64,000 nt of DNA from Candidatus Gorgyraea atricola (GTDB taxonomy: Bacteria > Omnitrophota > Gorgyraeia > Gorgyraeales > Gorgyraeaceae), in NCBI GenBank assembly GCA_030765235.1, contig JAVCCW010000006.1, forward strand, positions 1,789-65,788, read 5' to 3'. A program made the position numbers and the translations under genes. The number at the start of each line of letters is the position of its first letter. Positions within the stretch are counted from its first letter, which is position 1. This document shows positions 1 to 34,628 of this stretch, piece by piece. The notes under the pieces were generated by a model. That model was not told the DNA's origin. It ran no database searches and worked only from the letters and a program-made list of their open reading frames with translations.

Positions 1-2779
1 AGACCTCTGGGTCCTGAAATGGTATAAGAAGGTTATTGAATTCCTCAAAGAATTCTTTATAAAGGCCTGCTCGCAGGATCTCTAAAAGATATTTGTACTC
101 CATGTGCAGCCATATAGATTCATTCTCAAGCCACCCAGGCGTAAATACACTGGAGCGGCCCACCTCCTTTGAAATACCCTCAAGGGATTCATTGATCTTA
201 TACATCTTGAGCTTCTTGTCGTATAGGCCTGTTTTTTTCAATGCACTATACAGCGCCTTTTTCTTCTTTATATCCTTTTCAATCCTCATGGCCCGCACGT
301 TTCCCTCTAAAAATAAAGGTATCTTGCTAGTCTTAAACGCTGTAGGCTCTACAAGAGGAAGTTCTGTTTTTGGATCTCGTTTATTCAGATTTTTGAATTT
401 AGACACCTCGTTTGCAAAGTAAGTTGCATAAACCTTTTTGGACGGGATATATGTCTTTTTAATAACAGAGTCTATTTTTGAAAGAAATATTTTCAATATC
501 CTTTCCAGCTCTGCAATGCTAAGTGTATTTTCAGTACCACTAAGACCAAGCTTGACCTTTTCCCTGTACTTTTCCTTTAATAAATTAGCCTTATTCCAAT
601 AATAAAAATCTTTTTTAGCCTTGGATGTCTTGATGAGCGATTCCAGCTTTGTTATAAAATCTTGTATTTCCCCTGCAAGCCTAATCTTCACTGCAGGGTT
701 TAGATTTAGCTCTTTAAGCGCTTCTAATATAAAAACAATCTGTCTCTTTAACTCAAAGACCTCAGGCGTAGATGTCCCGAATAATCCTGGCAGGCCATTC
801 ATTGAATCGCACCAGCCTGGCTTATCTGCCTCCATCTCAATACCCCTGCCGCAAGGCCCTATAGACGCTATCTTATTTGCTATAATGCATAACATCTTGA
901 TAAGGAGCGTGGTCTTATATATCTTTCCTGTTCCTCTGGATGAACGCATTACATACGCGTCATCATGTCGTTTTTTTATCAGATGTTTCTTCTTAGAATC
1001 ATGCCTCAAGGAATGATACTGCCTGACCTTACCCAATCCAACTAAAAGACATTTTTCAGAGACAGGCTTTACACAATGGCTATTATCGTAGAAGGTAAAC
1101 TCTTTTTTATCCAGCAGGATCTCTTTTAGCTTCTCTGGATATATTGATAAAAAGCTCTCTACTAAATCAAGATTGTACGTCCAATGGTCTATCCAGAAAC
1201 CCTCGCTGTGCGTGGCTTCGTATTTTGCATCGCAATTCCTTAAAAGTTCGCCCAGGAATTCATGCCATGGCCTCTTTAATTTAATGCCGGCCTTTTCAAT
1301 GGTCATGAAAAGCTCTCCAGGGGAAAAATCATTCTGCAGGATATACTCTATCTTTCTTATAGCGTTTAGATCTACTTTTCCTTTAAAGGCATCTCTTAAT
1401 AATACGTTATTCTTGACCCTGAATTTTACTCCGTGCAGGACTAAGGGGTTAAAGCCATCCAGTTGCTGCAGATTGTAAAAATTCAATATATTTGAATCAC
1501 CTACATCAGGATTAAAGAACACGTCATTTCTGCGATTCTGATTTATGTCTCTGAAATTACCATTGCCCTGCGAGAAATATGTGGGATCTACATAAAATCT
1601 ATTGTAATCCCTTTCCAGGTCGCCATGCTTTCTGGAATATACATAAAAGGTGGGCGATTGATCTCCGAAATTTACTGGATAGCCGCCGCGCATGACATTA
1701 TCAAGAAATGTCTGTTTACAGTAAAGATCATACTTTTTCTCAGCTGAAGATGTGAAGACATCGTCCTGAAGTTTTTGTACAATTGTCTTATTTTCTTCTC
1801 TCTTATCTATAAAAAATTTCCTGTCGGTTAATCGCGATATCATTGAATTCAGTTTTTCTTTTGAGCCCATGTGGCCCATCAAGGAATAAAGCGTTACACT
1901 CCCTCCTTTTTTAAGCTTGGATGATGCAAGAGACATAGCGCATGGAAGTTTATTCTGACTTCTCTGCGAATCAGGCACTTTGAACCCTGGCTCATTTACA
2001 AAATGTATGGGATGCGAAAAATCATTGATCTCTCCGAAAATCAATTTCGGATCAACAAAGACAGGCAGGCATTCTGCCTTTTTCCCGTATTTAGATAAGG
2101 AGCTCAGGTAAAAATTTCCCTCGCTTATAAAAGATGTCTCAGATATGTCACTAGGATCTACCTTTAACCTATAAAACGGCGCGCCCTTTGCTATATTTTC
2201 CACAAGCATCCATGCCTCAACAGTACGCCTCATCTTTTGAAGAAAGAAATTATTCACGCCATAAGGTATAAAAAGAGGCGCGCCGTCCAATATCTCCATT
2301 TTCAAATCTTTTTTTGATATATTCTTTAATGTAACTACCCTTGCAAGGCCGGCAAAAGACTCGCCTGGTATAGTAAAATAATCTACTTCTACTTCAATGC
2401 CGAGCTCGTGATTGACTTCCTTAAGCCTGAGCTCGTGAGAGCTAATGAACATCTTTTGAATCGCATTAGAGTTCACGCAAAATGGTTCATACAGGATAGT
2501 CCCTTTTTTAGCCTTTATTTTTATAAATGTGCGGAAGCCTTGCGAAGATACAAGCTGGTAGGCCCTATTCGCGGGCAGAAATTCCATGATAGGGCTGTCT
2601 TTACTCTTAATGCCAAAACTGCACATACACTGGGCCCTATTGACATAGAACGCCCACATAGGCTTTCCAAATAGTCCTGCTATGCCTGGTAAGAAACTAG
2701 AGAAATTCCCTGCCTGGTTATAGTTTTCTATGATAAATTCGTTATTGGCGTCTATATAGTACTTTACAGACTTTTTCAT
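1..2779 (-). CDS. Large conserved protein, 3'-partial (runs off window start); weak resemblance to six-hairpin glycoside hydrolase/phosphorylase families
   Basis: Uninterrupted minus-strand frame from ATG at 2779 (MKKSVKYYIDANNEF...) to position 1. Absent from the ORF track only because no stop lies in the window. Motifs PGWCDSMNG (cf. GH94 GDWND-MN) and SIWLHMEYKY. All listed plus-strand ORFs here are short. Confidence 0.45.
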   Translation of the reverse strand, partial: MKKSVKYYIDANNEFIIENYNQAGNFSSFLPGIAGLFGKPMWAFYVNRAQCMCSFGIKSKDSPIMEFLPANRAYQLVSSQGFRTFIKIKAKKGTILYEPFCVNSNAIQKMFISSHELRLKEVNHELGIEVEVDYFTIPGESFAGLARVVTLKNISKKDLKMEILDGAPLFIPYGVNNFFLQKMRRTVEAWMLVENIAKGAPFYRLKVDPSDISETSFISEGNFYLSSLSKYGKKAECLPVFVDPKLIFGEINDFSHPIHFVNEPGFKVPDSQRSQNKLPCAMSLASSKLKKGGSVTLYSLMGHMGSKEKLNSMISRLTDRKFFIDKREENKTIVQKLQDDVFTSSAEKKYDLYCKQTFLDNVMRGGYPVNFGDQSPTFYVYSRKHGDLERDYNRFYVDPTYFSQGNGNFRDINQNRRNDVFFNPDVGDSNILNFYNLQQLDGFNPLVLHGVKFRVKNNVLLRDAFKGKVDLNAIRKIEYILQNDFSPGELFMTIEKAGIKLKRPWHEFLGELLRNCDAKYEATHSEGFWIDHWTYNLDLVESFLSIYPEKLKEILLDKKEFTFYDNSHCVKPVSEKCLLVGLGKVRQYHSLRHDSKKKHLIKKRHDDAYVMRSSRGTGKIYKTTLLIKMLCIIANKIASIGPCGRGIEMEADKPGWCDSMNGLPGLFGTSTPEVFELKRQIVFILEALKELNLNPAVKIRLAGEIQDFITKLESLIKTSKAKKDFYYWNKANLLKEKYREKVKLGLSGTENTLSIAELERILKIFLSKIDSVIKKTYIPSKKVYATYFANEVSKFKNLNKRDPKTELPLVEPTAFKTSKIPLFLEGNVRAMRIEKDIKKKKALYSALKKTGLYDKKLKMYKINESLEGISKEVGRSSVFTPGWLENESIWLHMEYKYLLEILRAGLYKEFFEEFNNLLIPFQDPEV

Positions 2780-8571: not shown

Positions 8572-8820
8572 TTAGCCCTCCTTTTGTTTTCGTTTTTTAT
8601 ATTTTTTATACTTCTCTGGGCCTATACAATCTTTTGCCATGCTGCACCAGTCAAGGCATGATTGCGGCATATCTCTTGAGACCTTTTTTTTGCAATGCGG
8701 ACAAGTAGTATCCGCTTCATCTGACCAGATCTCTACCTCTTTTCCGCACTTGCATTTTATATTCTCAGGAAAAGGCTCTTTGATTCTTTTAGAACCCGGG
8801 CATCCGTCAAAAAAACTCAC
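8572..8820 (-). CDS. Small cysteine-rich (zinc-ribbon-like) protein
   Basis: 82 aa, CKCGK...CPHCKK and C..WC.....C; immediately downstream of hcp; lysine-rich tail. Confidence 0.4.
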   Translation of the reverse strand: MSFFDGCPGSKRIKEPFPENIKCKCGKEVEIWSDEADTTCPHCKKKVSRDMPQSCLDWCSMAKDCIGPEKYKKYKKRKQKEG

Positions 8821-8821
8821 G

Positions 8822-9580
8822 CTATGCCTCCTTTATATCGCCTTTGATCCCCACAATCACTTTCTCTAAAGGAATCTTTTTGCCAGATAGTCGCAAGGCC
8901 TCTTTGACGATCTGAATCAAGCCAAAACAACACGGTACCTCCATGTGAAGAACCGTGATGCTTTTGATATTATTCAATTTAAAAAGTTCTGCCAGTTTTT
9001 CTTCATATATAGTAGCCGCATCAAGCTTCGGACAACCAATAAGAAGCACCTTGTCCCTCAGGAAATCCTGGTGAAAATCAGGATATGAAAACGCCACACA
9101 ATCCGCAGCTATAACCAGATCCGCTTCCTTTAAATAAGGCGCTTCCACAGGCACAAGCATGAGCTGTATAGGCCAATTTCCTAATTCAGGCTCGCTCTTG
9201 ACCCTCCCTTGTCTCTTGTCCCTTGCCTGCCCCGTACGAAATCTTTGATTTTCGTATGGGGTCCCTTGTCCCTTACTAAGCGTTTTCACTGCTGTTCCAG
9301 GACAACCACAGGGTAATTCTTTCTTCTCGCGCTTCTCAAGCTCCTCCAAATGCTTCTTTGTAGCCTTCTCATCAAAACCAGCTGACTCTCTTTCCTCTAT
9401 AGTTATAGCATCTTCAGGACAATGCCCAAGACACGCGCCCAGACCATCGCAGTAGATCTCTTTCACGAGCTTTGCCTTTCCATCTATTATCTGAAGCGCG
9501 CCTTCTGCGCAATTAGGGATACAAAGTCCGCAGCCCGTGCATTTTTCTTCGTCTATTTTTACGATTTTCCTTTTTGCCAT
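8822..9580 (-). CDS. 4Fe-4S ferredoxin-domain protein (hcp-associated) carrying an in-frame palindromic-element insertion
   Basis: CTGCGLCIPNC ... CLGHCP ferredoxin motifs; C-terminal Cys-rich domain. The segment GQGTPYENQRFRTGQARDKRQG is encoded by the 61-nt repeat. Confidence 0.7.
   Translation of the reverse strand: MAKRKIVKIDEEKCTGCGLCIPNCAEGALQIIDGKAKLVKEIYCDGLGACLGHCPEDAITIEERESAGFDEKATKKHLEELEKREKKELPCGCPGTAVKTLSKGQGTPYENQRFRTGQARDKRQGRVKSEPELGNWPIQLMLVPVEAPYLKEADLVIAADCVAFSYPDFHQDFLRDKVLLIGCPKLDAATIYEEKLAELFKLNNIKSITVLHMEVPCCFGLIQIVKEALRLSGKKIPLEKVIVGIKGDIKEA
9214..9274. repeat. RPE-like small palindromic element, copy A (inside ferredoxin-like CDS)
   Basis: 61 nt, 60/61 identical to 19997-20057. 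Core palindrome CCCCGTACGAAATC-TTT-GATTTTCGTATGGGG flanked by CTTGTCCC repeats. Confidence 0.85.
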
Positions 9581-9584
9581 GATC

Positions 9585-9989
9585 TTACTCCTTTAATAGA
9601 GATGCTATTGTAATCTTTTCTAATTCTTGCTTTACTAAGAGACAAATGCCTTTTAATTTTTTTCTAAGGACGCACTTCTTTACATTCGGACAGATCTTGC
9701 CTTTTAAAAGGCAGTTCGTAAAATCCAGTTTTCCTTGAAAGATTTCAATCAAATCTATCAGTCGTATTTTACTTGGGGATTTTTGAAAAGAAAATCCGCC
9801 TCTTTTCCCCTTGTGAGAGCGAAGCACCTTTTTCCTTGCCAGCTCCTGAAGTATTCTCCTTAAAAATCTCTCAGGCAGACGCTCCTCTTTGACAATCTCA
9901 TCCACTGTTATAATGTCACTCTTAGATGAGCGTGCCATGAACACTAGGGCCCGTATCGCATAATCTGTATCTCTTGCAATGAAATTCAT
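9585..9989 (-). CDS. Rrf2-family transcriptional regulator (NsrR/IscR-like)
   Basis: N-terminal wHTH typical of Rrf2 (DYAIRALVFMA); 134 aa; next to the hcp cluster. Confidence 0.85.
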   Translation of the reverse strand: MNFIARDTDYAIRALVFMARSSKSDIITVDEIVKEERLPERFLRRILQELARKKVLRSHKGKRGGFSFQKSPSKIRLIDLIEIFQGKLDFTNCLLKGKICPNVKKCVLRKKLKGICLLVKQELEKITIASLLKE

Positions 9990-15733: not shown

Positions 15734-18700
15734 ATGTTATCTCCTTTCTTAGTTTTCCTAAGCTGGGCTTCCTTAATCCAGCAGTATAAGACTGGCACAA
15801 GAATCAGATTAGAAAGTGTTGCTGTAACCAGGCCCCCGACTGTCGGGGATGCCATTGGTTTCATGATCTCAGAACCTGTACCTGTTGAAAGCATTACAGG
15901 GATCAGAGCGATGATCGTAGTCGTAGCAGTCATCATTGCCGGCCTTACCCTTAAGAGCCCGCCTTCAATAACAGTTTTTCGGATATCTTCTATGGTCTTT
16001 GGAACCTTTTTTTTAAACAAATCATCCAGGGTTGAAAGCAGTACCACAGCATTATCAGTTGCTACACCAAATAGCGCAATGAATCCAACCCACACAGCAG
16101 TAGAAAATTTAAATCCCAGGATGAATAATAAAATAATACCGCCCATGAGAGAAACAGGTATGCCTGTGGAGAGTATCAGTAAACTGCTAAAATTCTTAAA
16201 CGCCACGTAAAGCAACATCAGTATAACGGCCAGAGCGATGATAAGCGATGGTATGAGCTTCTTTCTCGACTCCATCTCTGACTCGAACTGGCCTGACCAG
16301 GAAATAAAATATCCCTGAGGCAGTTTCAAATCTCCGTTATCTATTCTTTCTTTTACTGCCGCTTGAGCCTCATTTACAAAATCTATCAACCCGATTTTGT
16401 CCTGATTGACATTTACAAAGACCCTTGCGTAAGTCTGAGTGTCCTCTGAATTGATAACTGCCGGGCCAGGCACCCTTTTTAAAGTCGCAACCTGTGTCAA
16501 AGGTATGTGCTCGCCAGCCGGCGTGGGGATAAAAATCCTTTCCAGCGCTTCCGGCGAATCTCTTAATTCCCTCAGGTATCTTATCCTTACCGGATACCTC
16601 TCTCTTCCTTCGACCGTGGTAGTCAGATTCATGCCGCCTATTGCTGTCATTATTATATGCTGTATATCTCCTATTTTTACGCCAAAACGAGCGGCCTTTT
16701 CTCTGTCTATGTCTATCTCAAAATACGGCCTATTTGATGTGCGTTCGGCATACGGACTCACTGCGCCTTCTACCCCACTTACTATATCTTCTATCTTAAC
16801 TGCGATCTCAACTATCTTTCCCAGATCAGTTCCAAAGACTTTGATACCCACTGGTGTCTGTATACCTGTGGCCAGCATATCTATTCTATTGCGTATTGGC
16901 TGTGTCATTATAGGGCTTACCCCAGGCATCCTGGTCTTTTCCTGGATCTCCTGAATGAGTTTCTCTCTGGTCATGCCTTTACGCCAGAATTTCTTGTCCT
17001 TAAGATGGATGATACTTTCGATCATGCTTACAGGCGCGGGATCTGTTGCAGTTTCTGCGCGGCCTAACTTACCTACTACCCACTTGACCTCTGGAAATTC
17101 ATTTTTTATAATAATATCCTGTTTTTTCATAACCTCCATTACCTGCGTCAGAGACGCGCCAGGTAAAAATACAGGCATGAATAGAAGATCCCCCTCGTTC
17201 AAAGGAGGCATAAATTCCTGACCCATCATAGAGCCGCATAATAAACCTATCAGTATAACTGCAATAGAAATGAGAATTACTATTCCTTTATGCTTAAGGG
17301 ACCAACGGATGATCGGGTTATATCCTTTATACAAGGCCCGGGCTGTCCTGTTTTCTTCAACAGGCCGCAATCTGCCCCTTAAAAAATAATAGCAAAGTGT
17401 TGGTAAAAGCATCAGGGCGATCACAGCAGCAGCTCCCATGGCAAATGTCTTTGTAAATGCGAGCGGCGTAAAGAGCTTGCCTGCCTGTCCTGTCAAAACA
17501 AAAACAGGGATAAACCCTACGATAGTCGTGAGAAGGGCAAACAGCACTGGCTTTCCAACTTCTTGCGCTCCGGATATGCAGACGTTCAGCCTTTCATCAG
17601 GCGCAAGCCGCTCCACGCCCAATTCTTTGAGCCTCGTAGCCAATCTTCTATAAATATTTTCTACCAGCACACAGCCAGAATCCACCATCACGCCTATGGC
17701 TATTGCAATACCGCCCAAAGACATGATATTCGCATCCACGCCATACTGGCGCATTAATATAAAGGAAAGAAGCACGCCTATCGGCAATACCATGGATATA
17801 ACAGCGCTTCCCCCAAAATGCAGCAAGAATACAAGAATTACAAAAACTGTGATTATCATCTCCTGCATCAGGGCACTTTTTAATGTATTGATAGCCCGCA
17901 TGATAAGGCCTGTTCTATCATAAAAGGGGACTATCTTTACTCCTTTAGGAAGGCCTACTGAGAGTTCATCTATTTTTTTCTTAATATTCTCTATCACTTT
18001 AAGGGGGTTTTCCCCATACCTCATTAAAATAACGCCGCCTGTAACTTCTTTTCCTTCTTTATCCAAAGCACCTCTACGGAATTCAGGACCTATTGTCACA
18101 TTCGCGATATTCTTTATATATATCGGGGTACCTTCTTTAACATCTACGACAATGTTCTCTATATCAGAGACATTTTTTATAAAACCAACACCGCGGACAA
18201 TGAACTCTATGCCCCCTTCTTCAAATACCTTTGCCCCTACATCTATATTGGACTTCTGGACAGAGGTTATGACTTCGTGGATTTTTATATCATGCGCTAA
18301 AAGTTTATTCGGGTCTATATCGATCTGATACTGCTTTACATATCCGCCAACTGATGCGACTTCTGATACGCCTTCAACCGCGGTCAACTGATAACGCACG
18401 TACCAATCCTGAATCGAACGAAGCTCTGCCAGATCATAGCCATCGCCCTCGACTGTATACCAAAAGATCTGCCCTAATGCAGTTGCGTCCGGGCCCAAGG
18501 TAATTTTTGCGTCACCAGGAATATCTCTTTTTGCAAAATCCAGCCTTTCCAGGACCCTGGTCCTTGCCCAATAATAATCTGTCCCCTCTTTGAAGATCAT
18601 ATTCACAAGGCCAAATCCGAACGCAGATGTCGAACGCACCACCTTTACTTTCGGCGTGCCCATCAGTCCTGTTGTCAACGGATATATGACCTGGTCTTCT

Positions 18701-18882
18701 ACATCTCTGGGGCTTCTCCCCGGCCAATCAGCATAGACAATAACCTGAAGTTCGCCTATATCAGGTATTGCATCTATAGGGATCTCCTTCATTGAAGAAA
18801 ATCCCCAGAAAATCAAAAGCGCAAACGTCGCTATGACCAGGAATCTATTTTTAAGACAAATTTCGATAATTTTATTTATCAT
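15730..18882 (-). CDS. cusA: CusA/CzcA-family heavy-metal efflux RND transporter
   Basis: 1050 aa; N-terminus collinear with CusA (NRFLV...IPIDAIPDIG...QVIYPLTTGLMG...YYWARTRVLERL). Confidence 0.9.
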   Translation of the reverse strand: MINKIIEICLKNRFLVIATFALLIFWGFSSMKEIPIDAIPDIGELQVIVYADWPGRSPRDVEDQVIYPLTTGLMGTPKVKVVRSTSAFGFGLVNMIFKEGTDYYWARTRVLERLDFAKRDIPGDAKITLGPDATALGQIFWYTVEGDGYDLAELRSIQDWYVRYQLTAVEGVSEVASVGGYVKQYQIDIDPNKLLAHDIKIHEVITSVQKSNIDVGAKVFEEGGIEFIVRGVGFIKNVSDIENIVVDVKEGTPIYIKNIANVTIGPEFRRGALDKEGKEVTGGVILMRYGENPLKVIENIKKKIDELSVGLPKGVKIVPFYDRTGLIMRAINTLKSALMQEMIITVFVILVFLLHFGGSAVISMVLPIGVLLSFILMRQYGVDANIMSLGGIAIAIGVMVDSGCVLVENIYRRLATRLKELGVERLAPDERLNVCISGAQEVGKPVLFALLTTIVGFIPVFVLTGQAGKLFTPLAFTKTFAMGAAAVIALMLLPTLCYYFLRGRLRPVEENRTARALYKGYNPIIRWSLKHKGIVILISIAVILIGLLCGSMMGQEFMPPLNEGDLLFMPVFLPGASLTQVMEVMKKQDIIIKNEFPEVKWVVGKLGRAETATDPAPVSMIESIIHLKDKKFWRKGMTREKLIQEIQEKTRMPGVSPIMTQPIRNRIDMLATGIQTPVGIKVFGTDLGKIVEIAVKIEDIVSGVEGAVSPYAERTSNRPYFEIDIDREKAARFGVKIGDIQHIIMTAIGGMNLTTTVEGRERYPVRIRYLRELRDSPEALERIFIPTPAGEHIPLTQVATLKRVPGPAVINSEDTQTYARVFVNVNQDKIGLIDFVNEAQAAVKERIDNGDLKLPQGYFISWSGQFESEMESRKKLIPSLIIALAVILMLLYVAFKNFSSLLILSTGIPVSLMGGIILLFILGFKFSTAVWVGFIALFGVATDNAVVLLSTLDDLFKKKVPKTIEDIRKTVIEGGLLRVRPAMMTATTTIIALIPVMLSTGTGSEIMKPMASPTVGGLVTATLSNLILVPVLYCWIKEAQLRKTKKGDNI

Positions 18883-30260: not shown

Positions 30261-30702
30261 CCCAATGCTCCTTTAAGAAATTCTTTAAATCCCTGGATAA
30301 GACTGGATCCTTACCATCTGTGTAGACTGCTATGATGGCTTTTTTAAATCTTAGGAGCGCAGGCGATATAAAATCGCTAATGTTTGAATCATCAACAACA
30401 TTAACCAATATCTGAAACTCCCGGCCCCACCGGCTTACCCTTTTATTCAAATCCCTATTATTTGTCGCGCTGACAACAAGTGCTGCATTTCTAATATCGC
30501 AGCGCTGCACAGGACGAGGAATCCATTTTATGTCTCTATTTTTTGCTAAACGCCTGATCGCTGGAGTTGCCTTTGGAGATATGACACGGACATCTCCACC
30601 TGCTTCCAGAAGCACCAATATCTTACGCTCTGCAACCTTGCCGCCTCCTATTACAACCACGCGGCGATCTTTAAGTTTTACTGCTATAGGTAAATAGTTC
30701 AT
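30229..30702 (-). CDS. sirC: Precorrin-2 dehydrogenase / sirohydrochlorin ferrochelatase (SirC / CysG N-domain-like)
   Basis: VVVIGGGKVAERK Rossmann motif; 158 aa from the internal MNYLPI start. Confidence 0.8.
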   Translation of the reverse strand: MNYLPIAVKLKDRRVVVIGGGKVAERKILVLLEAGGDVRVISPKATPAIRRLAKNRDIKWIPRPVQRCDIRNAALVVSATNNRDLNKRVSRWGREFQILVNVVDDSNISDFISPALLRFKKAIIAVYTDGKDPVLSRDLKNFLKEHWDDFVSYRNKL

Positions 30703-31409
30703 GTATTTGCCTTTAGGGGTCTGGTGTGTATGCCGCATTCTCCGCCGCATTTACTTGTGCCTATCCAGCGGCCTGCGCGTTCATTGTCATCATTTGTGAT
30801 CCTTGTACATGGTGCGCATCCAAGAGATCTGTAGCCCTCACCATATAAAAGATTCACGCCTACGCCATAAAGGGCCAAATATTGCCAGACCTCACGTTCT
30901 TTCCATATAAGAATGGGGTTCAATTTTATTAATCCCTTATCGCGCTCTTCAACTTCTTTGAATTCAGTTCGCGTACGACCCTCTGTACAACGAAGTCCAG
31001 TTACCCAGCAGGTAACACCCATATCTTCAACTGCCCGCTTAACCGGTTCTACCTTTAATATATCGCAACATTTGTCTGGTTCTGTCTCATATAGCTTATT
31101 AGGAATCTCTGAATCATTCTTATACACCTTGAGTTCAGGGTATTTCTTCACTTCTTCCTTCATAAAATCAACTGTCTCTTTTGGCTTAAATCTAGTAGTT
31201 ACTATAAATCCTCTGATCTTCGGACTTACGCGTTTTGCAAGATGCCACACTGCAACAGAATCTTTGCCAAGACTATTCGCTAACACTAGACCATCGCCGT
31301 ATTTTTTATAAGCTTCATCTATAAGCTCTAGCGACCGGTCTACCTTTTGTTTAAAATTCAATGTCTCTACTAACACCTTCAAATCTTCGCGAGTTTCCAA
31401 TAAACTCAT
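30699..31409 (-). CDS. cysH: Phosphoadenosine-phosphosulfate / adenylylsulfate reductase (CysH family)
   Basis: PP-loop SLGKDS; C-terminal ECGIH redox motif. Confidence 0.85.
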   Translation of the reverse strand: MSLLETREDLKVLVETLNFKQKVDRSLELIDEAYKKYGDGLVLANSLGKDSVAVWHLAKRVSPKIRGFIVTTRFKPKETVDFMKEEVKKYPELKVYKNDSEIPNKLYETEPDKCCDILKVEPVKRAVEDMGVTCWVTGLRCTEGRTRTEFKEVEERDKGLIKLNPILIWKEREVWQYLALYGVGVNLLYGEGYRSLGCAPCTRITNDDNERAGRWIGTSKCGGECGIHTRPLKANT

Positions 31410-31426
31410 AACTCCCCCCCCTTTGG

Positions 31427-31648
31427 TTAAATCTGATACTCGGGTGATTCCAACCTCCCGAATTTTACCCTGTTCCAGATTCGCTCATGTGCGTAATACA
31501 AAAAGATCTTTATAAGGTTTGCGCTTATCCCAACAACAAGAGACTCCTTTATATCCTTACTGTAGATATAAATAGCGATTACAGTTACTAAAAAAGCTAT
31601 TACGCGCCAGGTTATTGCCTTTGCAATAGATCTTTTTGGATGTTCCAT
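31427..31648 (-). CDS. DUF2061-family small membrane protein
   Basis: 73 aa, two TM helices; this family commonly neighbours sulfate-assimilation genes. Confidence 0.5.
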   Translation of the reverse strand: MEHPKRSIAKAITWRVIAFLVTVIAIYIYSKDIKESLVVGISANLIKIFLYYAHERIWNRVKFGRLESPEYQI

Positions 31649-31676
31649 TCTGTCTCCTCATATACTACTATTATAA

Positions 31677-31738
31677 TCAAGTTAGTCGGGATTAGATTAA
31701 AAAAATAAGGGTGGAAACTACCTTGTCAAACCCTAATC
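31677..31738 (-). promoter_or_regulatory. Structured 5' leader hairpin of DUF2061-cysH operon
   Basis: Nested inverted repeats GGGATTAG...CTAATCCC and AGGGT...ACCCT, 30-90 nt upstream of the DUF2061 ATG. Confidence 0.35.
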
Positions 31739-31772
31739 CCTACTAACCTAATCATATTTGTAATAATTACAA

Positions 31773-31812
31773 GTATACCATATAATCCAATGGTGTCAAG
31801 GGAAAAATTAAG
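31773..31812 (-). promoter_or_regulatory. Predicted promoter TTGACA-16-TGGTATACT (extended -10) for the sulfur/siroheme operon
   Basis: Minus-strand cccTTGACAccattggattataTGGTATACT. The same TGGTATACT -10 type recurs at csoR, the TA operon and the 1026-aa gene. Confidence 0.4.
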
Positions 31813-31882
31813 AAAAGTTATAGCACTAGGGGCACCACGCCCCACTTATCTATCGAAGATTAAATTTTAACGACTAGGCAAT

Positions 31883-31908
31883 GTAGGGGACACTTAAGTG
31901 TCCCCTAC
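31883..31908. repeat. Perfect 26-nt palindrome GTAGGGGACACTTAAGTGTCCCCTAC
   Basis: Same GTAGG...CCTAC architecture as the GTTTAAAC-centred REP family. A related half-site GGCACACTAAAGTGTGCCCTAC lies at 18895-18916. Confidence 0.7.
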
Positions 31909-31957
31909 TGCTACTGCTCTCAAAGTAGAAAACAATAGCGTGAAACAATATTGGCGT

Positions 31958-31995
31958 GGTAAATAAACGACCGTTTATTTATTTTAGGATTTTGG
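31958..31995. repeat. Imperfect direct repeat (left copy) flanking small-ORF cassette
   Basis: AAATAAACGACCGTTTATTTATTTTAGG...GTAGGGTT versus 32553-32590 AAATAAACGAACGATTGTTTATTGTAGGGTT. Confidence 0.5.
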
Positions 31996-32018
31996 GTAGG
32001 GTTGCTTAAATGGTTTCT

Positions 32019-32243
32019 TTACTGATTCTTTATTAATATAAGAATAAAAACTATTAACAAAACAACCACGAGGTAAAAAAGTTCTATTTGCAGGGGAGGT
32101 CTTTTAACCCATTTATGATAGGTAGGTCCCATACCTCGGTTAAGATATAATTTGCTACCACAAGATGGACAATTGATAGTTTTAGAATTACCTCCAAAAT
32201 TTGTCAAATCAGCCCCACAATGGCATAAGTTTTTCATTATCAT
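32019..32243 (-). CDS. Small zinc-ribbon protein with C-terminal transmembrane helix
   Basis: CHCG...CPSCG ribbon; hydrophobic tail LFYLVVVLLIVFILILI; GGAGGG RBS 8 nt upstream. Confidence 0.4.
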   Translation of the reverse strand: MIMKNLCHCGADLTNFGGNSKTINCPSCGSKLYLNRGMGPTYHKWVKRPPLQIELFYLVVVLLIVFILILIKNQ

Positions 32244-32271
32244 CTTTTAAATCCCTCCGCAAATAAAGGTT

Positions 32272-32451
32272 TCATTTCTTAAACCATTTTTTCCAAACAA
32301 CATAACAAAACAAAACAAGAAGCACTCTTCCAAATAGTTCTTTGTAAAAATAATAAAAATTCTCATCTGGAGCTACTTTCGCTGACAATGCCCAGCCAAT
32401 TATTATTAATACTCCTGCCGTTAAAACAATTATCAATTCTTTTTTACTCAA
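32272..32451 (-). CDS. Putative small membrane protein (59 aa, TTG start), tentative
   Basis: Frame LSKKELIIVLTAGVLIIIGWAL...LLVLFCYVVW with two hydrophobic segments. It is preceded by a 12-codon ORF (MEKKRSIGVTVE, ATG 32482) with AAGGAG RBS and a TTGACC-16-TATACT promoter (32504-32531). Confidence 0.25.
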   Translation of the reverse strand: MSKKELIIVLTAGVLIIIGWALSAKVAPDENFYYFYKELFGRVLLVLFCYVVWKKWFKK

Positions 32452-32552
32452 CCGTCACCCCAATTGACCTCTTCTTCTCCATAACATCTCCTTGCTTCTA
32501 CAAAGTATACACTATGCACTTCAAAGGTCAAATAGGATAAAATAATCCACTA

Positions 32553-32590
32553 AATAAACGAACGATTGTTTATTGTAGGGTTTTTATACT
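32553..32590. repeat. Imperfect direct repeat (right copy) flanking small-ORF cassette
   Basis: See 31958-31995. Confidence 0.5.
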
Positions 32591-32723
32591 GGCTATATAC
32601 AAGAAGAATAAGGGGAGGATTGTTTACTGTAGCTAAGGATTCTTAGTTCACTCTATTGCTGTGTAAATCATACGGGTAATCTGGTCAAATCTAACCAGGT
32701 TAGAAACGGCTAAGAAACGGCTA

Positions 32724-32747
32724 CCAAATCAAAGATTTGGAACGGGG
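32724..32747. repeat. Small palindromic element CCAAATC-AAA-GATTTGG + AACGGGG
   Basis: 7-bp perfect stem; same AAATC-NNN-GATTT core as the in-frame RPE-like element. Confidence 0.6.
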
Positions 32748-32825
32748 CTCGCTGTAAACCGTAGCGGACCGCTAAAATCTCTCCAGTGCCGAAGGCCCCA
32801 GCCTGCCAGAAGAATTGAGATTGCT

Positions 32826-32856
32826 TCCCATTCCAAATCTCCGATTTGGAACGGGA
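32826..32856. repeat. Small palindromic element TCCCATTCCAAATC-TCC-GATTTGGAACGGGA
   Basis: 14-bp stem (one mismatch); arms nearly identical to the riboswitch P3 arms. Confidence 0.65.
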
Positions 32857-32918
32857 CACGGTCGCTTCGCTCGCAATGACAAGTAGGTTCTCGACTCGCT
32901 TTGCTCGCTCGAACAGTA

Positions 32919-34628
32919 TTAGAGAATGATGTTGAGTAGGGTGCCTACGAGGAGGGCTACGGATAGCATGATTGTGGCGGATTTTAGCATGTCTTTTATG
33001 CCTAGTTCTTTGACAAGCATAACAAAGGTGGCGATGCAGGGAAAGTAGATTGCTAGCACTGTGGATCCGATTACAAGTTGCTTGGTCGTGAGGTTAAGTG
33101 GGCCGAGCATGCCTACTGCAACGTCTTTTCTTAAAAAGCCTACAATCAATGCAGAGATCGCTTCTTTTGGAAGGCCCCACAGGCCTGTAAGAATTGGCGC
33201 AAATAATCTGGAAACAAAATCTATTACATGAAGCGCGTACAGGATATTGACAAACAAGATCCCTAAGAGCACGTATGGTATTGCCTCTTTTAAAAAACCA
33301 GATACCCTCATCCAGAGTTTCTTAACTACAGCTATAGCCTGAGGTATTCTATATGGTGGGATTTCAACTAATATCTCAGGACTCGCGCCCTTTAACACCT
33401 TATTCATGATAAGGCCCTTTACAATCAAAAGTATAAAAAGTGTGCCAAAGACAATGCCCAGATACTGGCCGCCTCTTTCTCCTACTAGTCCTATGATCAT
33501 GGCGATCTGCGCCATGCATGGGATAGACACAGCCATGAGCGTTGCTGCAATGAATTTTTCACGCCTTCCTTCTAAGAGCCTGAGCGCCAATGCACCTGGC
33601 ACATTGCAGCCCATACCCAGCATCATCGGTACTATTGCAAATCCGTGAAGCCCGATATGATGCATGAGATTGTCGACCATAACTGCCAGACGAGGCAGAT
33701 ATCCAAAATCCTCAAGTATCCCCAAGATCAGATAGAAGCTGATTATATATGGCAACACCATTGCGATTGGCACAAATAGACCTGTAGTCAATACGCCAAA
33801 CGACATCTTAAAATCAATTGCGCCATCAATAAGATTCCCGACTAATACATTGTGTAAAAACGTATCCTGGCCCAGCAAACTGCCAAACTTAAGCATCAAT
33901 GGTGCCCATAGTTTTTCAAATAAAGGCTCGCACACAAAGGTTATAAGGCTCTCGCCAATAAAACGTATGGCCCAGAACGCGCCATAGATAATAGCCATAG
34001 CTATTGGAATACCTGATAGCGGTTTTATGCTAAGCTCTTCTAATCTCTGAAGGACTGTGTGATGATGATGTGTTATTTTCTGAACATCCTCGACAATCTC
34101 TCCTATCCTTTCCCATTTCTCAGAATCAGACAATGGCTTGAGCTTTAAAGGATATGCGTCTTTTAAACGTATAACCAGCTCCTTTATGCCCTCGCCAGTC
34201 AAACCGCATGTTGGAACAACAGGAACGCCCAGATGCTCCTCTAATCTTTTAACATCAATATCAATGCCCTGGTGTTTTGTTTCATCCCACATATTCAGCG
34301 CAATGACAGTGGGGATATTTTTTTCTAATATTTGGAGGGTTAGATACAGATTCCTCTCAAGATTTGTCGCATTTACTACATTTATTACTACATCACCCTG
34401 TTTCAGCATCTGACAGGCTACATCCTCTGCCTTACAGGTAGGCTCTAATGTATAGGTACCAGGCACATCTATAACAGAAGGGCGCTCGCTTCCTATCTTC
34501 ATCTGGCCCTGTGTAAATTCTACAGTAGTGCCCGGATAATTAGACACAGCGATCCTGGCTCCAGTAAGCCTGGAGAATATAGCACTCTTACCAACATTGG
34601 GATTGCCCATCAACAATACTTTTTTCAC
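32919..34628 (-). CDS. feoB: Ferrous iron transporter FeoB (short form)
   Basis: G1 GNPNVGKS and G-protein domain followed by a polytopic permease; 569 aa. Confidence 0.9.
   Translation of the reverse strand: MKKVLLMGNPNVGKSAIFSRLTGARIAVSNYPGTTVEFTQGQMKIGSERPSVIDVPGTYTLEPTCKAEDVACQMLKQGDVVINVVNATNLERNLYLTLQILEKNIPTVIALNMWDETKHQGIDIDVKRLEEHLGVPVVPTCGLTGEGIKELVIRLKDAYPLKLKPLSDSEKWERIGEIVEDVQKITHHHHTVLQRLEELSIKPLSGIPIAMAIIYGAFWAIRFIGESLITFVCEPLFEKLWAPLMLKFGSLLGQDTFLHNVLVGNLIDGAIDFKMSFGVLTTGLFVPIAMVLPYIISFYLILGILEDFGYLPRLAVMVDNLMHHIGLHGFAIVPMMLGMGCNVPGALALRLLEGRREKFIAATLMAVSIPCMAQIAMIIGLVGERGGQYLGIVFGTLFILLIVKGLIMNKVLKGASPEILVEIPPYRIPQAIAVVKKLWMRVSGFLKEAIPYVLLGILFVNILYALHVIDFVSRLFAPILTGLWGLPKEAISALIVGFLRKDVAVGMLGPLNLTTKQLVIGSTVLAIYFPCIATFVMLVKELGIKDMLKSATIMLSVALLVGTLLNIIL

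Follow-up and report, generated by a model that had tools for sequence, protein, structure and literature searches.

Several described systems share one feature or another with the locus analyzed here. Phage morons, a concept reportedly due to Hendrix and colleagues, occur in phages or prophages, each with a promoter of its own and a factor-independent terminator. In integron cassettes, the attC sites are imperfect palindromes of 57 to 141 nt with the cores R'' (RYYYAAC) and R' (GTTRRRY). Two Pfam families concern small proteins linked to FeoB, namely, PF09012, which we take to be FeoC, and PF12669, presumably the FeoB-associated Cys-rich membrane protein. Palindromic repeats form a further class, among them the GTAG-tagged REPs, in which GTAG is an unpaired tag (PMC3733652).

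Our window, by which we mean the whole 64-kb stretch of DNA that was analyzed, comes from one strain of an uncultured member of the Omnitrophota, and these 64 kb are the part of its genome that the analysis covers. The window is gene-dense, as a preliminary description of this DNA had it, with only two gaps of more than 1 kb. One of these is the 1,270 nt separating feoB from DUF2061, where the neighboring genes, judged from Pfam profiles of the window's open reading frames (ORFs), are housekeeping genes. The preliminary description regarded all of this 1.27 kb as lacking an annotated function, which is true of most of it but not of the 168 nt adjoining DUF2061, which constitute a conserved promoter and leader. 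The features of the region are as follows.

31649-31816, minus strand: conserved promoter and ~120-nt leader of the DUF2061-cysH-sirC-hemA operon, outside the insertion
31817-32918, no strand: lineage-specific insertion of 1,102 nt that separates the conserved promoter from the feoB stop codon (32919-32921)
31829-31843, no strand: GC hairpin GGGGCACCACGCCCC at the left insertion edge, just upstream of the conserved promoter
31883-31908, no strand: perfect 26-nt palindrome GTAGGGGACACTT/AAGTGTCCCCTAC (-25.4 kcal/mol, z -5.4)
31958-31995, no strand: direct repeat copy 1, an AT-rich hairpin AAATAAAC-GACC-GTTTATTT with a T-rich tail on the plus strand
32019-32243, minus strand: orf74 (74 aa), with an ATG start, CxC-x15-CPxC knuckles, and a C-terminal transmembrane (TM) helix
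32272-32451, minus strand: orf59 (59 aa), with a TTG start, a single clear N-terminal TM segment, and a basic C-terminus
32444-32482, minus strand: 12-codon leader ORF MEKKRSIGVTVE, ATG at 32482 and TAA ending at 32444, read from the sequence
32504-32531, minus strand: promoter-like site TTGACC-16-TATACT (10/12 matches)
32551-32590, no strand: direct repeat copy 2, a hairpin AAATAAAC-GAACGATT-GTTTATT followed by GTAGGGTTTTT
32607-32632, no strand: partial third copy of the repeat, 81% identical, without the left hairpin arm
32640-32918, no strand: GC-rich block (~48% GC) of REP/MITE-like modules

In five syntenic Omnitrophota relatives, the gap between feoB and DUF2061 measures just 132 to 465 nt, and the conserved promoter and leader either adjoins the feoB stop codon or sits within tens of bases of it; positions 31817 to 32918 are therefore an insertion in this lineage. 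The retained promoter (TTGACA-16-TATACT, 31799-31772, 11/12 matches) belongs to a segment, 31649-31816, that is 92% identical to positions 2568-2733 of the relative L002 and 76 to 80% identical to its counterparts in L006, L007, L009, L010, and L011. A combination of blastn and direct reading of the sequences places window position 31816 at 2568 of L002 and window position 32919 at 2530, such that the homologous flanks are 37 nt apart in L002 (and 3 nt apart in L006 and L007). The inserted DNA thus exceeds in size the cassette that was flagged beforehand. What fills the site differs among relatives: a terminator hairpin in L002 and L011, the aforementioned 3 nt in L006 and L007, and, at the same position in L005, another palindromic element, whose perfect inverted repeats are 22 nt long.

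Comparing this interval among related genomes had been proposed as a check, and the insert is missing from all five syntenic relatives, with no trace of its AT-rich unit in any of them. Both flanks are syntenic with those of the relatives, the closest of which has only 86 to 91% nucleotide identity there. A metagenome scan based on CysH recovered the cassette in 0 of 80 further loci (the best being 89% identical), and a metagenome scan with the leader pattern returned no match. Over 31804-32359 and 32191-32821, the window is matched at 100% identity by contigs of two other ENA assemblies, the right junction at 32918/32919 being beyond them; since these independent contigs are identical and the flanks syntenic, the middle unit and the left junction are probably not an assembly artifact. 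Exact-protein look-ups yielded only short, 100%-identical contigs of the same strain, none of them a population variant with or without the insert. The sequence, including both small ORFs, is known from this strain alone.

The insertion is a mosaic of three parts, with GC contents of 0.43, 0.32, and 0.475 in its left, middle, and right portions, respectively: an AT-rich middle (32% GC) holding repeats and ORFs, and, to either side, GC-rich, REP-like palindromic modules of a sort common in the intergenic DNA of Omnitrophota. No terminal inverted repeats are present at the ends of the 1.1 kb. On the left, the perfect palindrome occurs as a single copy in this window, and GTAGGG..CCCTAC palindromes number 21 across 11 unrelated Omnitrophota loci, with compensatory changes in the stems; the 26-nt palindrome is, by sequence, a probable member of this REP-like family of the phylum. 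The GC-rich block on the right contains two CCAAATC-N3-GATTTGGAACGGG palindromes (32724-32746 and 32833-32855), a GATTGCTTC...CGCAATGAC module at 32813-32879, and a half-palindrome adjoining the feoB stop codon. Short matches of 21 to 40 nt to this block are found in L002, L012, and L063, and its module family has 22 occurrences in 7 loci. We rejected the block as a structured RNA on the basis of a fold z-score of only -1.7, and homology searches with a 49-aa ORF running across it gave identical sequences of the same strain or nothing.

Within the middle portion, the best direct repeat pairs 31960-31993 with 32551-32584 (34 nt, 85% identical, spaced by 591). The pair is nonrandom: its score of 21.5 surpasses all 200 dinucleotide shuffles of region 31649-32918 (11.3 +/- 1.2, maximum 16), which bears out the imperfect direct repeats initially described. 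Each of these two copies is a small AT-rich palindrome, and between them the stems are conserved and the loops differ, with hairpins of 19 to 23 nt. Copy 1 follows the orf74 stop codon by ~25 nt, and copy 2 begins 20 nt upstream of the -35 hexamer. The motif AAATAAAC-N4-8-GTTTATT has these two sites only in the 64-kb window (0 expected) and none in 160 unrelated loci, and further copies of the hairpin motif were absent from the window, from ~1.7 Mb of related loci, and from IMG/VR. The repeats resemble each other in inverted orientation as well (74 to 83%), but only because each is itself palindromic.

These repeats had been proposed as insertion footprints, a proposal that does not survive comparison with relatives. 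The insertion boundaries, at 31816/31817 and 32918/32919, lie beyond the repeats by ~140 nt and ~330 nt, and the repeats are not flanked by a target-site duplication (the sequences next to them, ..GGCGTGG and CTATATAC.., have nothing in common); both copies are weak AT hairpins within the insertion and not target-site duplications at its edges. On the minus strand the hairpins fold at -5.5 kcal/mol (copy 1) and -7.9 kcal/mol (copy 2), and 61-nt plus-strand segments fold at -9 to -11 kcal/mol, in no case better than shuffled sequences (z -0.9 to -1.6). The strand that carries their T-rich tails is the plus strand, antisense to the ORFs, which makes a terminator role for the unit doubtful, and the coding strand has no canonical terminator 3' of orf74. 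When direct repeats were surveyed in 1.7 Mb of loci, no systematic class of repeat-flanked cassettes turned up. One apparent parallel, two small genes with 142-nt direct repeats in L063, was discarded as ordinary REP clusters after successive genes.

Between the repeats, the minus strand reads as a compact unit. The promoter-like site is at the position given in the preliminary description and matches in 10 of 12 bases, but because the region contains 9 such sites against 5.4 +/- 1.9 expected, it is weak evidence by itself and not significant alone in AT-rich DNA. The 12-codon ORF is likewise present as first described, preceded by AAGGAG (32493-32488) at a distance of 5 nt, and its end overlaps the TTG of orf59 by 8 nt. 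For orf59, described as a TTG-initiated two-helix membrane protein, the position and start hold, but there is one clear TM segment, the second hydrophobic stretch amounting to only ~11 residues; an in-frame ATG is absent, and the Shine-Dalgarno sequence before the TTG is weak. Its coding score of +0.033 bit/nt is above those of 81 of 81 shadow ORFs.

The second ORF, orf74, follows at a tight spacing of 28 nt and has GGAGGG (32258-32253) 9 nt before its ATG. Its initial designation as a zinc-ribbon protein is retained in part: the ORF, the ribosome-binding site, and the C-terminal helix stand, but the zinc ribbon comes down to a CxC...CPxC pattern and subthreshold hits, with all zinc-ribbon profiles under their cutoffs (E = 0.02 to 0.5). 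An AF2 model gives a helix at residues 51 to 72 (pLDDT 88 to 98) and a beta-hairpin at residues 22 to 33 of low pLDDT (53 to 66), from which a tail-anchored topology is predicted. Neither Foldseek on this model (best E = 3.4) nor a PDB sequence search produced a significant match. The coding score of orf74, -0.023 bit/nt, is ambiguous and within the range of shadow ORFs. When this AT-rich DNA is shuffled, 9% of the shuffles contain a single ORF of 74 codons or more, and only 0.15% of 2,000 contain two ORFs in tandem on one strand, with at least 74 codons in one and at least 59 in the other, so that by this count orf59 and orf74 are probably genes.

Searches with the two proteins, which had been suggested in the form of HMM searches, detected no significant profile in Pfam, PHROGs, PADLOC, or NCBIfam for either one; PADLOC gave 0 matches at E values up to 1, and the best PHROG match (E = 0.016) was to a family of unknown function. 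Pfam was equally silent on ten further small ORFs of the insertion. There is no homologue of orf74 or orf59 among 5.8 billion protein clusters (only identical same-strain sequences or nothing) or in an exhaustive phmmer search of 1.84 billion representatives. One phmmer hit, P0003 (E = 2e-25), was dismissed as an artifact, in which weak matches of a 20-residue stretch are summed over a repeat protein of 6,209 aa. Scans of IMG/VR for both proteins found nothing, and blastn and tblastn detected no match in phages or plasmids. The absence of protein homologues and of phage or plasmid DNA matches suggests that the unit is probably of foreign or orphan origin.

The surroundings add few clues. Rfam yielded no match in 31000-33500 (E-value scan) or across the whole window (gathering threshold), and ARAGORN found no tRNA or tmRNA as a possible integration site. 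We saw no phage or defense-island context around the unit and no immunity, transport, or processing genes beside it (Pfam, window ORFs). Transposase and integrase families are missing from the strongest Pfam matches listed for the window, and no recombinase family is among the 75 best Pfam families listed for its ORFs. An identity of orf74 with FeoC or the FeoB-associated protein was set aside, given no Pfam (E up to 1) or NCBIfam match to either family and the absence of the gene after feoB in the five relatives.

We consider 31817-32918 to be, probably, a lineage-specific 1.1-kb mosaic insertion at an intergenic hot spot for insertions, with a self-contained unit of orphan genes that makes it a moron-like islet. 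This hot spot would be the stretch that separates the end of feoB from the DUF2061-cysH promoter, a reading drawn from the different palindromic element that L005 holds at the same site, and the insertion would have taken the place of the short terminator hairpin present in relatives. Its AT-rich (32% GC) minus-strand middle would form the self-contained unit, probably acquired horizontally, and would run from the promoter-like site through the 12-codon leader ORF and orf59 to orf74. In this arrangement, orf59 would encode a peptide with one TM segment, possibly translated in coupling with the leader ORF, and the product of orf74 would be a tail-anchored protein bearing a putative cytoplasmic Cys4 knuckle domain. 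The direct repeats, one just 5' of the -35 and the other just 3' of the last stop codon, bracket the unit exactly and in our reading are its own boundary hairpins, maybe weakly insulating or terminator-like, or else relics of the recombination that delivered it. Our best guess is that orf59 and orf74 are small membrane proteins, accessory and dispensable, and that their unit resembles a phage moron in its construction.

The most serious challenge to this interpretation is that the AT-rich segment is a noncoding relic, decaying foreign or spacer DNA in which the ORFs, promoter, and Shine-Dalgarno sequences are due to chance and the repeats are leftover hairpins with no current role. The lack of a homologue in any database searched fits such a relic, as do the 9% of shuffles with a single ORF as long as orf74, the shadow-like coding score of the latter, the missing ATG of orf59, and the unenriched promoter-like matches; we would add that hydrophobic ORFs presumably arise easily from T-rich strands. 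It is difficult to reconcile with the rarity of the tandem pair among shuffles (0.15%), with an orf59 coding score above all 81 shadow ORFs, and with a good, correctly spaced Shine-Dalgarno sequence before an orf74 only 28 nt from its neighbor, and we regard it as unlikely though far from negligible. At the other extreme, the segment could be ancestral, with the relatives having lost it, or could be the product of a chimeric assembly. There are only five syntenic relatives, the closest at 86 to 91% flank identity, and the right junction falls outside the independent contigs; nevertheless, the different short fillers (terminator hairpin, 3 nt, palindromic element) mean that deletion needs several independent precise losses, the AT-rich unit has left no trace in any relative, and a chimera is opposed by syntenic flanks and by independent assemblies that reproduce 31804-32821 exactly. 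We view either possibility as very improbable.

Two further explanations assign the unit a more specific nature. The repeats might be the recombination ends of a hairpin-ended, nonautonomous mobile cassette, mobilized in trans, that carried the ORFs into the REP cluster, a model patterned on the subterminal hairpins of IS200/IS605-derived PATEs or on integron attC sites. Such a model would lead one to expect a pair of similar, directly oriented hairpins, which here are ~590 nt apart and share their stems but not their loops, along with the lack of target duplication or of terminal inverted repeats beyond the palindromes and a base composition unlike both flanks. It is rendered improbable by the confinement of the motif to this one site (in the window, 1.7 Mb of related loci, and IMG/VR), the want of a transposase or integrase among the strongest Pfam matches listed for the window, hairpins far shorter than attC with a 5/7 fit to the R''/R' consensus, and insertion boundaries that, as set by relatives, fall outside the repeats. 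The preliminary description leaned toward a toxin-like, bacteriocin-like, or phage-exclusion module, a label for which we find no positive evidence, considering the housekeeping neighbors and the empty profile, phage, plasmid, and viral searches. In its most concrete form (a type I toxin-antitoxin, holin-, or bacteriocin-like system), orf59 would be a membrane-damaging toxin gated by the leader ORF as mok gates hok: it is small, with a TM segment, a basic C-terminus, and a poor start overlapped by a well-initiated 12-codon ORF; the unit is strain-specific, as are many accessory toxin loci; and the hairpin T-tails on the antisense strand accompany a weak plus-strand promoter-like site at 32173-32200. 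That antisense promoter matches in only 9 of 12 bases, however, no PADLOC, PHROGs, Pfam, or NCBIfam match emerged, genes for immunity, transport, or processing are lacking, as is any phage or defense-island context, and orf59 is indistinguishable from any other small membrane protein, for which reasons we give the toxin explanation little credence. Long shots, finally, are that this is an undescribed nonautonomous small-gene cassette with hairpin recombination ends, akin to those of IS200/IS605 or to integron attC sites, that inserts orphan membrane-protein genes into Omnitrophota REP clusters or, alternatively, that orf74 and orf59 are new FeoB accessory factors.

A strain-specific insert with orphan genes is a real but fairly ordinary genomic novelty, and the value of the present case is modest: it provides a base-by-base record of a streamlined genome from an uncultured phylum gaining orphan small-protein genes, at an intergenic site that also gathers REP-like palindromes and that has received another element in a relative. 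If expressed, orf59 and orf74 would be membrane microproteins without detectable relatives among ~15 billion predicted proteins. The promoter of the sulfur-assimilation/heme operon has its -35 just 17 nt downstream of the insertion edge, and, with the terminator after feoB displaced, altered read-through from feoAB into this operon is possible.

Set against described systems, the locus shows partial correspondences. In common with FeoC or the FeoB-associated protein, orf74 has ~75 aa, cysteines, one TM helix, and a position downstream of feoB on the same strand, but ~680 nt of repeats lie between it and feoB, and it has a promoter-like site to itself. The hok/mok system likewise has a small hydrophobic peptide whose weak initiation is overlapped by an upstream frame with a strong Shine-Dalgarno sequence (the overlap here being read from the sequence); it differs in that there is no sequence similarity, no fold-back mRNA elements, and a larger second ORF in our unit. 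As in an integron cassette, small orphan ORFs share one orientation within ~0.6 kb and have imperfectly palindromic direct repeats at either end, but here the hairpins are 19 to 23 nt, AATAAAC and GTTTATT fit the attC cores at 5/7 and are 4 to 8 nt apart, the unit has its own promoter-like site, no array is seen in the window, and no integrase is among the strongest Pfam families listed for it. Similar hairpins at both ends in direct orientation, without terminal inverted repeats or target-site duplication, recall the IS200/IS605-derived PATEs, a likeness that is weak evidence alone, and no Y1 (HUH) transposase or sister copies were seen within 64 kb.

With REP/BIME and MITE-like elements the resemblance lies in the flanks of the insertion, which are GC-rich palindromes of 20 to 40 nt located 3' of a gene, from families that recur in Omnitrophota and with compensatory stem changes, and in the relative that bears another palindromic element at the site. 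The AT-rich repeats, unlike REPs, are outside these families and not multicopy; the GTAG of the GTAGGG...CCCTAC palindromes takes part in pairing, in contrast to the unpaired tag of GTAG-tagged REPs (PMC3733652); and, unlike in a MITE or insertion sequence, the repeats show no terminal inverted repeats beyond their own palindromes and no target-site duplication, with no further copies in the 64-kb window, ~1.7 Mb of related loci, or IMG/VR. Phage morons differ from this unit in their setting, which here is a housekeeping chromosomal region, and in that the downstream hairpin has no U-tail on the coding strand. As in a moron, there is extra DNA of deviant base composition between genes that are adjacent in relatives, and, as in morons and strain-specific orphan islets alike, it comes with its own promoter-like site, bracketing hairpins, and small proteins of unknown function.

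The window derives from an Omnitrophota genome whose CysH-like PAPS-reductase shares 80 to 92% identity with proteins from numerous Omnitrophota MAGs, and its minus strand carries, in order, a radical-SAM gene, feoA, feoB, a 1,270-nt gap, DUF2061, cysH, sirC, and hemA. This gap, put at 1.27 kb in the preliminary description, is indeed one of only two longer than 1 kb in an otherwise gene-dense window. Neighborhood functions are housekeeping (heme, iron, sulfur, and oxidative stress), with no mobile-element families among the strongest Pfam matches listed for it. The second large gap (1479-2962; 1,484 nt) has neither a tRNA nor an Rfam match, and its ORFs all stay below 90 aa, the longest (2408-2674, plus strand) being 88 aa. 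The interval from cysH to feoB is laid out as follows.

30699-31409, minus strand: cysH
31427-31648, minus strand: DUF2061
31649-31816, minus strand: conserved promoter and leader
31817-31957: left part of the insertion, 43% GC, with a GC hairpin and a perfect 26-nt palindrome
31958-32600: middle part, 32% GC, the unit of the preliminary description
32019-32243, minus strand: orf74, 74 aa, preceded by GGAGGG
32272-32451, minus strand: orf59, 59 aa, TTG start
32482-32444, minus strand: 12-codon ORF preceded by AAGGAG
32531-32504, minus strand: promoter-like site TTGACC-16-TATACT, by sequence match
about 32601-32918: right part, 47.5% GC, with further recurrent modules
32919-34628, minus strand: feoB

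Five related loci keep the feoB-DUF2061-cysH synteny (L002, L005, L006, L007, and L011), with a feoB-to-DUF2061 gap of 132 to 465 nt versus 1,270 nt in the window. Beyond the conserved block at 31649-31816, which is 92% identical to L002 and 76 to 80% identical to the others, homology does not return until the feoB stop codon. Positions 31816 and 32919 of the window align with L002 positions 2568 and 2530, and since L002 has only a 37-nt terminator hairpin between these homologous flanks, and L006 and L007 have 3 nt, positions 31817-32918 (1,102 nt) are, by sequence alignment, an insertion that none of the available relatives shares. The cassette is absent from all five syntenic loci, the comparison proposed in the preliminary description, and no trace of it occurs in 80 further metagenomic loci, in which CysH identity reaches 89%. 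Between the feoB stop and the promoter, L005 holds a different palindromic element with 22-nt perfect inverted repeats at the identical spot, and the site is thus a recurrent insertion point, or hot spot. This L005 element (9349-9629; ~280 nt), whose perfect inverted repeats are terminal and accompanied by nested ones, follows a GTCATTCCTGCGAAAGCAGGAATCC-type repeat and looks MITE-like.

The conserved block, which lies upstream of DUF2061-cysH-sirC-hemA, contains a promoter, TTGACA-16-TATACT (11/12 matches), and a ~120-nt leader, in which an invariant block, ACAAATATGATTAGnTTAGTAGnGATT, is able to pair with AATCnCGACTAAnTTGATTAT, a block toward the 3' end, enclosing a variable hairpin that is followed by a T7 run. 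A terminator-like hairpin persists in more distant relatives, together with the motif ACTAAGTTGATAA..TAGTA ahead of the Shine-Dalgarno sequence. The leader is a candidate that could act as attenuator, riboswitch, or operator for the sulfur and heme genes. It has no Rfam match, and RNAalifold recovers its hairpin, which covariation does not back (1 of 26 pairs is compensatory). Three independent short same-strain contigs (L164, L163, and L001; JGI 3300005915 and ENA ERZ27315536) stop within this leader at 31744-31804, at most 60 nt apart and just inside the insertion's left edge, a pattern that could stem from low coverage at the junction or from strain heterogeneity there.

By base composition, the insertion has three parts. 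The left-part palindrome, GTAGGGGACACTT/AAGTGTCCCCTAC (31883-31908; 26 nt, perfect, -25 kcal/mol, z -5.4), belongs to a family, GTAGGG-N-TTTAAA-N-CCCTAC, that occurs 21 times across 11 unrelated Omnitrophota loci (L012, L043, L058, L063, L067, L107, L132, L137, L142, L157, and L159) and shows compensatory stem changes. Across many Omnitrophota genomes, this family forms perfect 26- to 30-nt palindromes, as many as 5 of them in 12.7 kb, with the stem variants GGCAGG/CCTGCC, GGGAGG/CCTCCC, and GGGACG/CGTCCC. The right part holds a GATTGCTTC...CGCAATGAC element with a 49-nt internal hairpin (22 copies of this family in 7 loci), two CCAAATC-N3-GATTTGGAACGGG palindromes, and short stretches 92 to 100% identical to intergenic DNA of L002, L012, and L063. 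In the copy at 32813-32879, the internal segment is unusually long (49 nt versus 8 to 38 nt in relatives) and contains the palindrome CCCATTCCAAATC-TCC-GATTTGGAACGGG, a sister copy of which lies 109 nt away (32724-32746). At 8627-9485 in locus L063, a pair of small genes that includes DUF2283 lies between direct repeats of 142 nt, which are 94% identical and separated by 717 nt, and the same GATTGCTTC..CGCAATGAC modules stand further along the locus at 16021-18862; we rejected this arrangement as a cassette system, since the modules reappear after successive genes, a REP-cluster pattern.

Every element of the described unit, from promoter-like site to orf74, is present, and orf74 and orf59 are probably real genes, on moderate statistical evidence. 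When this AT-rich DNA is shuffled, 9% of the shuffles yield a single ORF of at least 74 codons, and only 0.15% yield two tandem same-strand, nonoverlapping ORFs (at least 74 and 59 codons). Under a three-periodic Markov model trained on 46 long ORFs of the window, orf59 scores +0.033 bit/nt, above all 81 shadow ORFs and close to the real DUF2061 gene, and orf74 an ambiguous -0.023 bit/nt. A noncoding relic, to which the latter score and the lack of homologues could point, is rather unlikely. Neither protein has homologues in 5.8 billion protein clusters, nor does orf74 among 1.84 billion representatives searched exhaustively with phmmer; its lone match there, a giant 6,209-aa protein with dozens of N-[FY]-G-L-G-A-T-R-H-S-W-[IV] copies, was rejected as a repeat artefact (E = 2e-25 from summed weak matches), a caution for small-protein searches. 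The ORFs are otherwise found only on 100%-identical short same-strain contigs in two ENA assemblies; a 100%-identical JGI metagenome contig spans DUF2061-cysH only and lacks them. With that recurrence on one side and absence from relatives on the other, an ancestral segment or assembly artefact is highly improbable.

The direct repeats (31960-31993 and 32551-32584; 34 nt, 85% identity, spacing 591 nt, with a partial third copy at 32607-32632) are real: the gap's top-scoring repeat reaches 21.5, exceeding all 200 dinucleotide shuffles (11.3 ± 1.2, maximum 16). Their core motif, AAATAAAC-N4-8-GTTTATT, has no further site in the 64-kb window and occurs in 0/160 unrelated loci. The copies are small AT-rich palindromes with conserved stems, different loops, and T-rich tails on the plus strand, and the hairpins enclose exactly the promoter-to-stop unit. 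A hairpin-ended mobile cassette is an improbable reading. The hairpins are weak (minus strand alone, -5.5 kcal/mol for the left copy and -7.9 kcal/mol for the right; 61-nt plus-strand segments, -9 to -11 kcal/mol), and none is more stable than shuffles. Nor are the repeats footprints of the insertion, as had been proposed, since they lie inside it, about 140 and 330 nt from its edges; no target-site duplication adjoins them in the window. Most simply, they are boundary structures belonging to the unit itself or remnants of its acquisition, with no evidence of a new mechanism.

Of the proposed two-helix membrane protein, orf59 (which has no in-frame ATG) retains one clear transmembrane segment but not the second helix; for orf74, the C-terminal helix is confidently predicted (pLDDT 88-98), and the zinc ribbon comes down to a CxC...CPxC motif and sub-threshold profile matches. 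Such small membrane proteins had suggested a toxin, bacteriocin, or phage-exclusion role, which found no support: the HMM searches proposed for both gave no PADLOC match and nothing significant in PHROG, Pfam, or NCBIfam, phage, plasmid, and IMG/VR collections have no match to the unit, and structure and PDB searches were nonsignificant. A toxin-type module is accordingly a long shot. Comparison with Pfam, NCBIfam, and syntenic relatives also led us to reject orf74 as FeoC or a FeoB-associated Cys-rich membrane protein.

We favor a moron-like, lineage-specific orphan gene unit within a REP-rich intergenic hot spot, where the insertion would take the place of the feoB terminator found in relatives; strain-specific orphan islets are already common. 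The overlap between the poor TTG start of orf59 and the 12-codon ORF, which is well initiated, recalls mok/hok-type coupling, as a resemblance only. The GTAGGG palindromes are similar to the GTAG-type REPs described previously (PMC3733652) and are REP-like, yet their GTAG is paired.
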